NCBI GenBank assembly: GCA_964373175.1
Contig: CAYJTP010000004.1
Span: forward strand, 6,651-70,650
Direction: 5' to 3'
Length of the DNA: 64,000 nt
Source of the DNA: an uncultured Planctomycetales bacterium
GTDB lineage: Bacteria; Omnitrophota; Gorgyraeia; Aquiviventales; Aquiviventaceae
Shown here: positions 46,667 to 47,578 of the stretch, one piece after another
How the letters are laid out: every line of letters starts with the position of its first letter
Numbering within the stretch: the first letter of the stretch is position 1
The notes under the pieces: generated by a model
Told to the model about the DNA's origin: nothing
Database searches by the model: none
What the model saw: only the letters and a program-made list of their open reading frames with translations
Made by a program: the position numbers and the translations under genes

Positions 46667-47578
46667 TTAATAGCGCACCCCGTCGGTCTTGGTTAACCGT
46701 CGGAAGGCCTGCTGAAGGCGCTTGGTGACCGGGCCGGGCTTACCCTGCCCAATCACCCGCCCGTCGATCTTCACGACGGGGACAATTTCGGCAGCCGTGC
46801 CGGTCAAGAAGCACTCCTGCGCGTTAAACAGATCGTGCCGTGTGAGCAGTTCCTCCCGGACATCCAAACGCAGGGTTTCGCCAAGCTCCATGACGGTCCG
46901 TCGGGTAATCCCGCGCAGGACCCCGATGTACGGCGGGGGGGTGAGCAAGCCTGCCTGCGCCGCCAATCGGCGGGGCGCAGGCAGGCGCTTGCCAGTGACA
47001 ATGAAGAGATTCTCACCCGTACATTCGGTGACATAACCTGAGGGCGAAAGCATGATCGCTTCCTCATAGCCTGCGTTGATCGCCTCAATCTTCGCCAGGA
47101 TGTTGTTCAGGTAGTTCAAGGATTTGATCTGGGGATTGAGCGCCTCGGGGACATTGCGCTGGGTCGCCACCGTGATGAGCTCAAGCCCTTTCTCATACAG
47201 CTGCTTCGGATAGAGCTCGATCTTGTCTGCAATGACGAAGACCGTGGGCTTGGTGCACTTGCGAGGATCCAAGCCCAGGTCCCCCTCACCCCGCGTCACG
47301 ACCAGCCGGATATAGGCGTCCTTCAGCTTGTTCACCCGAAGGCTCTGCTTGACGATTTCAACGAGCTCCCCCTTTGAGAGGGGAATCTTCAGCATGATCG
47401 TATGGGCAGATTCAAACAACCGATCGATGTGCTCACGCAGCTTGAAGATCAGGCTGTTGTACGAACGGATCCCTTCAAAGACCCCGTCCCCGTATAAGAG
47501 CCCGTGGTCAAAGACGGACACCGTCGCAGCTTGGCTGTCCACAAACTTGCCGTTGAGATAGACTTTCATATCGGTCAA
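46667..47578 (-). CDS. ilvE: Branched-chain-amino-acid aminotransferase (PLP fold type IV) carrying an in-frame 13-aa palindrome-encoded insertion
   Basis: …SVFDHGLLYGDGVFEGIR…, …EAIMLSPSGYVTECTGENLFIV… then TGKRLPAPRRLAAQAGLLTPPPYIGVLRGITR. Homologues go from …F.V.dg.l directly to TPP…GITR. Confidence 0.85.
   Translation of the reverse strand: MTDMKVYLNGKFVDSQAATVSVFDHGLLYGDGVFEGIRSYNSLIFKLREHIDRLFESAHTIMLKIPLSKGELVEIVKQSLRVNKLKDAYIRLVVTRGEGDLGLDPRKCTKPTVFVIADKIELYPKQLYEKGLELITVATQRNVPEALNPQIKSLNYLNNILAKIEAINAGYEEAIMLSPSGYVTECTGENLFIVTGKRLPAPRRLAAQAGLLTPPPYIGVLRGITRRTVMELGETLRLDVREELLTRHDLFNAQECFLTGTAAEIVPVVKIDGRVIGQGKPGPVTKRLQQAFRRLTKTDGVRY
46943..46990. repeat. 48-bp palindrome GCAAGC-CTGCCTGCGCCGCC-AATC-GGCGGGGCGCAGGCAGG-CGCTTGC inserted in frame in ilvE (same family as the leuA palindrome)
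   Basis: Read directly. It encodes KRLPAPRRLAAQAGL. Compare leu[14 protein letters not shown] from CTGCCTGCCGCGCCGATCGGCGCGCAGGCAGG. Confidence 0.75.

Follow-up and report, generated by a model that had tools for sequence, protein, structure and literature searches.

Introduction

Palindromic repeats that are translated as part of proteins are known from the RPEs of Rickettsia and from a few REP-rich genomes, and are described here from a high-GC, uncultivated groundwater lineage. REPs are palindromic repeats of 20–40 bp tagged with GTAG or CGTC (Di Nocera et al. 2013, PMC3733652); intragenic REPs of 20–40 bp encode 10–30 aa in Opitutus terrae, Thauera and R. conorii, and are often found in repair genes (PMC3733652). 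RPEs are presented, in later accounts that follow Ogata et al. (2000), as in-frame insertions in Rickettsia ORFs (PMC10969869, PMC3184786). MITEs and other small repeats (BOX/RUP/SPRITE, Bordetella BRE, ERIC) are non-autonomous, and they can extend the ends of genes or lie within them (PMC3184786).

We analysed a 64-kb stretch of DNA from a metagenome-assembled genome (MAG), hereafter the window, the homologues of which carry the lineage label Candidatus Omnitrophica at NCBI. The element under study is a palindrome in ilvE, which belongs with copies in leuA, topA and at the murJ/uvrC junction to what we call family A.

Family A resembles REPs in consisting of short GC-rich stem-loops in several copies, some of which are intragenic and encode ~10–30 extra residues. 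Genes of replication and repair, which REPs often hit, are represented here by uvrC and topA, and in both cases several families share a genome, and some sites carry nested or dimeric inserts. The size and fold of the present elements (35–38 nt, −39 to −41 kcal/mol) are those of a REP, a GC-rich imperfect palindrome of 20–40 bp. However, no shared GTAG/CTAC or CGTC/GACG stands beside the ilvE, leuA, murJ/uvrC and topA stems, a RAYT gene was not found within the 64-kb window, and the family-A copies of the window are mostly intragenic, whereas REPs are mostly extragenic.

The comparison with RPEs rests on behaviour, and similarity to their sequence is not expected. In both systems, palindromic repeats lie in frame in unrelated housekeeping genes, and related species differ in which sites are filled. 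The RPE peptide is considered to fit the fold of its host protein, and an AF2 model places the present insert in a surface turn; like RPEs, the 36-nt and 33-nt inserts are in frame at positions that the structure tolerates, as predicted for the turn of IlvE. Length and consensus do not agree, since RPEs measure ~100–150 bp and the present elements 33–38 nt (~55 nt at murJ/uvrC). RPEs are also AT-rich and belong to an obligate intracellular alphaproteobacterium, in contrast to the ~80% G+C found here.

With MITEs and other small repeats, the present elements share the use of gene ends, as seen in the MurJ C-terminus, part of the UvrC N-terminus and a UvrC C-terminal tail made by a second palindrome family, family B. 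MITEs, however, are 70–300 bp long, have a core flanked by terminal inverted repeats, and create defined target-site duplications, whereas these are bare, coreless hairpins with variable junction repeats (GC/GCC in ilvE and leuA, GCAGGC in topA). New here are protein-coding palindromes, a known type of selfish DNA, that are both very short and untagged.

Results

The ilvE palindrome is a lineage-specific insertion

The minus-strand ORF 46667–47578 holds the ilvE element in frame (Table 1). Its product matches Aminotran_4 (E = 6e-55), and among solved structures it is closest to branched-chain aminotransferases of archaea and bacteria, for example 5e25 (E = 5e-95). The plus strand from 46943 to 46992 reads gaGCAAGCCTGCCTGCGCCGCCAATCGGCGGGGCGCAGGCAGGCGCTTGC and contains a perfect 13-nt inverted repeat, GCCTGCCTGCGCC / GGCGCAGGCAGGC (46949–46961 and 46974–46986), with 12 nt between the arms, in agreement with the initial annotation, which had described a palindrome at 46943–46990. 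The GCAAGC/GCTTGC arms that were said to extend its core were also found (46945–46950 and 46987–46992), offset by a 2-nt bulge across which they add five pairs to the stem; their bases come from the host codons for G-K-R and L-L. The coding (minus) strand, folded as RNA, reached −38.9 kcal/mol (z = −4.9), which was equalled by none of 200 shuffles. Family-A elements in general are 33–38 nt long with ~80% G+C, and their palindromes, of 35–38 nt, have stems of 13–15 bp. When up to two mismatches were allowed, the 14-nt arm of the ilvE element had 8 sites in the window versus 1.7 expected, and its inner stem-loop (CCCCGCCGATTGGCGG) is similar to a third palindrome family, CCACCCCGCC-AATT/ATC-GGCGGGGTGG. 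An intrinsic terminator or a known structured RNA was rejected: there was no terminator-like site in 46600–47700, the hairpin lacks a U-tract, and Rfam yielded zero matches at the gathering score across the whole 64-kb window.

Table 1 Palindromes and tandem repeats in the 64-kb window
Feature	Position	Strand	Remarks
Host gene ilvE, branched-chain aminotransferase, fold type IV	46667..47569	-	300 aa from MKV start
Full ilvE palindrome	46945..46992		Family arms, central loop and outer GCAAGC/GCTTGC pairing
Net ilvE insertion	46949..46984	-	36 nt encoding LPAPRRLAAQAG; tblastn gap versus relative L001
leuA sister copy	19466..19500		35-nt palindrome, net 33-nt insert (11 aa); LeuA allosteric domain
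Third family copy, murJ/uvrC junction	62305..62357		Arms GCCTGCCTGCCGCGCC and GGCGCGGCGCAGGCTGGC; about 55 nt
topA variant copy	9724..9762	-	GCCCGCCTGCCC..GGGCGGGCAGGC; the site is empty in L127
Family B copies	8889-8918, 44709-44738, 60803-60832, 61373-61402		
Third palindrome family	28619-28647, 60209-60224, 60270-60293		CCACCCCGCC-AATT/ATC-GGCGGGGTGG
Two mutually related palindromes	25324-25367, 28516-28563		~45 nt, very high G+C, GCCCGCCCCCCCGGCCCG..CGGGGCGGGC
(CAGARGA)n clusters	14186-14228, 20972-20986, 21326-21382, 35816-35907, 39285-39369, 54137-54165, 57371-57399		

The length of IlvE in its 120 closest homologues has its mode at 288 aa, as compared with the 300 aa of the window protein counted from the MKV start. 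The closest of them (P0002, 93% identity, 288 aa) reads ..NIFIVTGKR^LLTPPP.. (carets mark insertion points) without the 12 aa, and the window protein has LPAPRRLAAQAG at the caret. At the DNA level, the site is empty in L001 (GGC AAG CGG^CTG CTC), in L129 and L131 (GGC AAG CAG^CTG CTC) and likewise in L132, while the window codons are GGC AAG CG[C CTG CCT GCG CCC CGC CGA TTG GCG GCG CAG GCA GG]C TTG CTC, with a junction that is ambiguous by 2–3 nt (GC/GCC direct repeat). These empty sites were taken from relatives more distant than P0002; a search of metagenomes for ilvE relatives returned only four close loci. The addition that had been reported is therefore in frame as claimed, and its extent is revised: the net insertion amounts to 36 nt or 12 aa, and the R that precedes it, previously counted as part of the inserted stretch, is the conserved GK[RQ] codon outside the insert.

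Of the indels in ~20 kb syntenic with L001, only the ilvE insert formed a long hairpin, with 14 paired bases, while the rest reached 7 at most. None of the 120 closest homologues had an orthologue of the insert. The canonical 15-residue ENxF..TPP segment was present in 101 of 109 diverse IlvE homologues (38–97% identity), and the same-site insertion in unrelated homologues that the initial annotation had named as counter-evidence thus did not appear. The absence from P0002, together with the canonical segment in most homologues, indicates that the insert is lineage-specific and arose after the split from P0002.

The insert lies in a predicted surface turn

An AF2 model of IlvE, built from a diverse alignment, had a mean pLDDT of 95.9 and a pTM of 0.92. 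Between the strands formed by residues 187–192 and 207–210, residues 193–206 were modelled as coil and were the sole low-confidence stretch (block means 65 and 78), the remainder exceeding a pLDDT of 90. The PDB homologue 5e25 has a plain turn at this position. The 12 extra residues, as modelled, lengthen the tip of a beta-hairpin turn and leave the remaining enzyme intact, so that the check for an exposed loop that had been proposed came out positive for IlvE. For the regulatory domain of LeuA, zero PDB chains aligned, and the leuA insert was left unplaced in structure.

A sister copy in leuA

The leuA insert follows the conserved V[KR]LR. In Pfam, 141 residues of LeuA fall on 130 positions of the LeuA_dimer profile, which fits 11 extra residues, and the nearest LeuA homologues (85–87% identity) lack the 11 aa. 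Folded as RNA, this hairpin reached −40.7 kcal/mol. Aligned in coding orientation, the elements of ilvE and leuA, which lie 27 kb apart, are identical at 34 of 37 positions with one 3-nt indel, and neither palindrome is derived from its own flanks. On this alignment the two palindromes are homologous, although not identical in core as had been supposed. The initial annotation had preferred a mobile palindromic element to coincidence, and this preference is supported by the homology and by the absence of both inserts from the nearest homologues; from this distribution, we infer that the family-A element is mobile.

Further copies share one reading frame

Facing pairs of the exact 10-mer GCCTGCCTGC occur in the window only at 19466/19500, 46949/46986 and 62305/62357; in the last of these pairs, one arm has a single mismatch. 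The left arm of this murJ/uvrC copy is identical to that of leuA (16-nt arm), and its ~20-nt loop contains the overlapping murJ stop and uvrC start (ATGA, 62335–62338). Its arms encode the MurJ C-terminus (..QPAPRP, followed by the stop) and UvrC residues 6–12 (RGAAGRR), with no gain in the length of UvrC. This hairpin folds at −32.3 kcal/mol with the uvrC AUG inside its loop, and initiation of uvrC might be translationally coupled or occluded. In topA (DNA topoisomerase I), a net in-frame insert of 33 nt (9730–9762) encodes the 11 aa GPPAQMDEGRAG, and its junction carries the 6-nt direct repeat GCAGGC. The corresponding site in L127 is empty (GAC GCA GGC^ACA TTC), and L128 has another segment of 8 residues at the insert position.

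A scan of public-genome contigs for GCCTGCCTGC-N(8-38)-GCAGGCAGGC showed that nadE of another MAG (L028, 68% GC, titled Candidatus Omnitrophota) also contains the element in frame, as RLPAALPWGTTGAAQAG. The matches listed came from many phyla, with the window's own genome not among them; therefore, the arm motif is not lineage-specific. Among the 122 listed matches, 59% fell within a reading frame free of stops for 150 aa or more versus 84% of random positions, a measure that long spurious ORFs in GC-rich DNA make uninformative. Candidatus Latescibacterota MAGs, among the matches listed, carry a multi-copy 35-nt palindrome with the outer arms GCCTGCCTGC/GCAGGCAGGC and an asymmetric GC bulge, such as GCCTGCCTGCCGAGCACGGCTCGGCGCAGGCAGGC (loci L014, L033, L047, L052–L056, L066, L084, L090 and L099), and multi-copy families of similar hairpins are thus seen in an unrelated phylum.

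Family A has three exact-arm copies and two variants in the window, four of these being intragenic. The left arms of all five intragenic copies considered (ilvE, leuA, topA, the MurJ C-terminus and nadE of L028) are read as xGC-CYG-CCT-GCx, the sole one of the three frames without TGC (Cys), which gives L/P-P-A ... Q/R-A-G. Two copies of one family do lie in frame in two branched-chain enzymes, as first noted, but the link to this pathway is incidental, because palindromes of this and sister families are also found in topA, uvrC, murJ/uvrC and nadE.

The window as a whole is rich in hairpins with at least 10 paired bases (32 versus ~10 in shuffles). Family B, TCCGCC..GGCGGATCCGCC..GGCGGA, has four copies and encodes SA[KR]GGSASGG: one sits near the start of the xerC ORF (5' end), in the region between topA and xerC, and another between mcsB and clpC; of the two in uvrC, one provides the C-terminal tail of the protein (..ARGGSASGGQ, followed by the stop), and the other, which is internal, is part of a 20-aa in-frame insert. 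Palindromes of the type CCCCGCC-loop-GGCGGGG occur three times. Six loci of relatives (L001 and L127–L131; ~120 kb, mostly syntenic with the window) contained a lone family-A arm together with three sites that all lie in L130, one of GGCGGATCCGCC and two of the CCCCGCC type. The near-absence of copies from the syntenic DNA of relatives indicates that family A has expanded in this genome.

Insertion points recur across the clade

The IlvE turn carries inserts in 21 of the 120 closest homologues, mostly a 10-aa family-B unit, within which L003 and L004 have additional nested palindromes. In LeuA, inserts were present in 6 of 120 homologues at exactly one shared codon boundary, five of them 33 nt long; apart from the window, this identical boundary is filled in five lineages, four with 33 nt. 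The insert of L211 retains the central GCCGTTCGGCG, its central GCCGWTCGGCG being common to the window copy, and that of L126 approximates the window copy minus the central 12 nt. Those of L127, L128 and L210 are decayed, in L210 beyond recognition, with the hairpin gone and a compensatory pattern absent. In an NJ tree of the 120 LeuA sequences the carriers were scattered, requiring six gains, or one gain and 24 precise losses. Since five related lineages have an insert at the identical boundary, insertion hot spots or repeated precise loss must contribute. A further site, GI^DD in UvrC, has inserts of 4–32 aa in 23 of 120 homologues.

In L129 and L131, the unfilled ilvE site, AGCAG^CTGCT, is itself a short palindrome with the insertion point at its centre, and the reconstructed empty site of the window, GCAAGC^GCTTGC, is likewise palindromic about it; the leuA flanks pair too (GCUG/CAGC). 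The junctions show 2–6 nt of microhomology or direct repeats (GC, GCC, GCAGGC).

Discussion

The ilvE element is probably one copy of a family of REP-like, non-autonomous, GC-rich palindromic repeats, which have multiplied here and are tolerated in permissive loops. One family-A copy would have entered ilvE after the split from the relative whose protein is 93% identical. The element would be a non-autonomous passenger, with a trans-acting activity or microhomology-templated copying seeding new sites, preferably GC-rich ones that are themselves small palindromes. Purifying selection would then keep only copies with a length of 3n, read in the Cys-free frame and placed in permissive surface turns or at gene ends, and such filtering would account for the repeated hits on a small set of loops throughout the clade. 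For the enzyme, the insert is most likely neutral, and the very stable mRNA/DNA hairpin is most likely a by-product and not a designed regulator. That the element is an insertion, belongs to a family that has expanded in this genome and sits at a permissive location follows from the comparisons above; as to its mode of spread, it may have been moved by a transposase acting on hairpins or by microhomology-templated copying. Neither a transposase nor a RAYT gene was present among the 20 scanned proteins of the 64-kb window, and no transposase domain among the Pfam-annotated syntenic genes of relatives. Further points against this explanation are the lack of the GTAG/CGTC tag that known REP superfamilies bear, the same-boundary pattern in leuA, which also fits an old insertion with many precise losses, or recombination, and the host codon choice (CGC, TTG), which lengthens the outer stem and could hint at selection for the hairpin.

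The last point belongs to an alternative in which the mRNA or DNA structure is kept for its own sake and the peptide is incidental, the conceivable roles being RNase III/RNase E processing, a translational pause between strands, a site for gyrase or a nucleoid protein, or control of uvrC initiation. The stability of the hairpins is exceptional for coding mRNA (−38.9, −40.7 and −32.3 kcal/mol; z −3.5 to −5.8), the CGC and TTG codons of the host add 5 bp to the ilvE stem, the leuA arms of the window and of L126 are both nearly perfect despite a LeuA identity of only 78%, and the uvrC start codon is within the loop of the third copy. However, the insert is missing from most relatives, including the one whose IlvE is 93% identical, and is therefore dispensable; the leuA inserts of L127, L128 and L210 decay without compensation, U-tract and Rfam match are both absent, and structural permissiveness is the sole trait common to the host genes and positions. 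A selected function of the RNA structure is thus unlikely, and we give this explanation little credence. Equally little is given to one ancient insertion per site, followed by vertical descent with frequent precise excision or by spread through homologous recombination among relatives, in which no transposition takes place at present and gene conversion keeps the copies alike. Five of the six leuA carriers do share both the 33-nt length and the codon boundary, the centre GCCGTTCGGCG is preserved in L211, the L126 insert looks like the window copy shortened by its central 12 nt, and the junction direct repeats of 2–6 nt (GC, GCC, GCAGGC) would favour precise deletion. Against this stand the 24 precise losses that a single gain demands where six gains suffice, and the lack of an orthologous ilvE insert in all 120 closest homologues; moreover, the occurrence of one 35–38 nt sequence in ilvE, leuA, topA, murJ/uvrC and nadE is left unexplained.

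A local origin de novo, by template switching or hairpin slippage at a mini-palindrome, with neither a family nor transfer between loci, would draw on the palindromic empty ilvE site (GCAAGC^GCTTGC in the window, AGCAG^CTGCT in L129 and L131) and on the pairing leuA flanks. The ilvE insert is not the reverse complement of either flank, by which derivation from the flanks was ruled out, and its 34/37 match to the leuA copy, with further matches in other genes and in another MAG, is an identity between loci that excludes a local origin; what chance we leave to it is very slight. Palindromes are a known class of assembly artefact, and the source is a MAG contig, so that an assembly or amplification artefact, such as an inverted chimera, has to be weighed as well. 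The insert is a multiple of 3, in frame, stop-free and situated at a structurally permissive turn, and inserts of the same family or type occur in frame in independent JGI, ENA and NCBI assemblies, for which reason an artefact is excluded for practical purposes and appears the least credible of these readings.

A more specific possibility, which we regard as rather doubtful, is that the repeats of this clade insert site-selectively at the apex of small pre-existing palindromes or hairpins (GCGC-centred) in single-stranded DNA, and that orthologous boundaries are independently re-hit. The recurrences at the LeuA boundary (six times), at UvrC GI^DD (23/120) and in the IlvE turn (at least two families and nested copies) would be its signs. 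If true, it would amount to hairpin-into-hairpin transposition with neither a GTAG/CGTC tag nor a known transposase, would point to an undescribed hairpin-mobilising activity, and would repeatedly vary the lengths of loops in the core enzymes of an uncultivated phylum. The repeated identical insertion points and the insertion at the centre of existing mini-palindromes are the aspects that most deserve attention.

Regarding the REP-like family as the source of the ilvE insert, these sites provide a natural experiment on which loops of core enzymes tolerate 10–30 extra residues, the turns of IlvE, LeuA and UvrC having been hit repeatedly. For annotation, the inserts account for odd protein lengths in the clade and should not be taken as functional motifs.

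Other repeats in the window

In the third palindrome family, which resembles the inner stem-loop of the ilvE element, two copies lie in the N-terminal part of a HAMP/GAF/HD-domain gene. The two mutually related palindromes of ~45 nt are located just upstream of ilvB and at the 5' end of an AIR-synthase-like gene, in the latter case probably upstream of the real start. Heptanucleotide tandem repeats, (CAGARGA)n, gave 29 matches versus 1.9 expected and form seven clusters near gene ends; where they run into ORFs they are translated as tails of a 12-residue type, such as the C-terminal extension of ilvC. Finally, the 428-aa ORF 14265–15551 (minus strand) has a third-position GC of 0.45 versus ~0.7 in its neighbours and no Pfam match, and may be foreign DNA amid genes of aromatic and branched-chain amino-acid biosynthesis.
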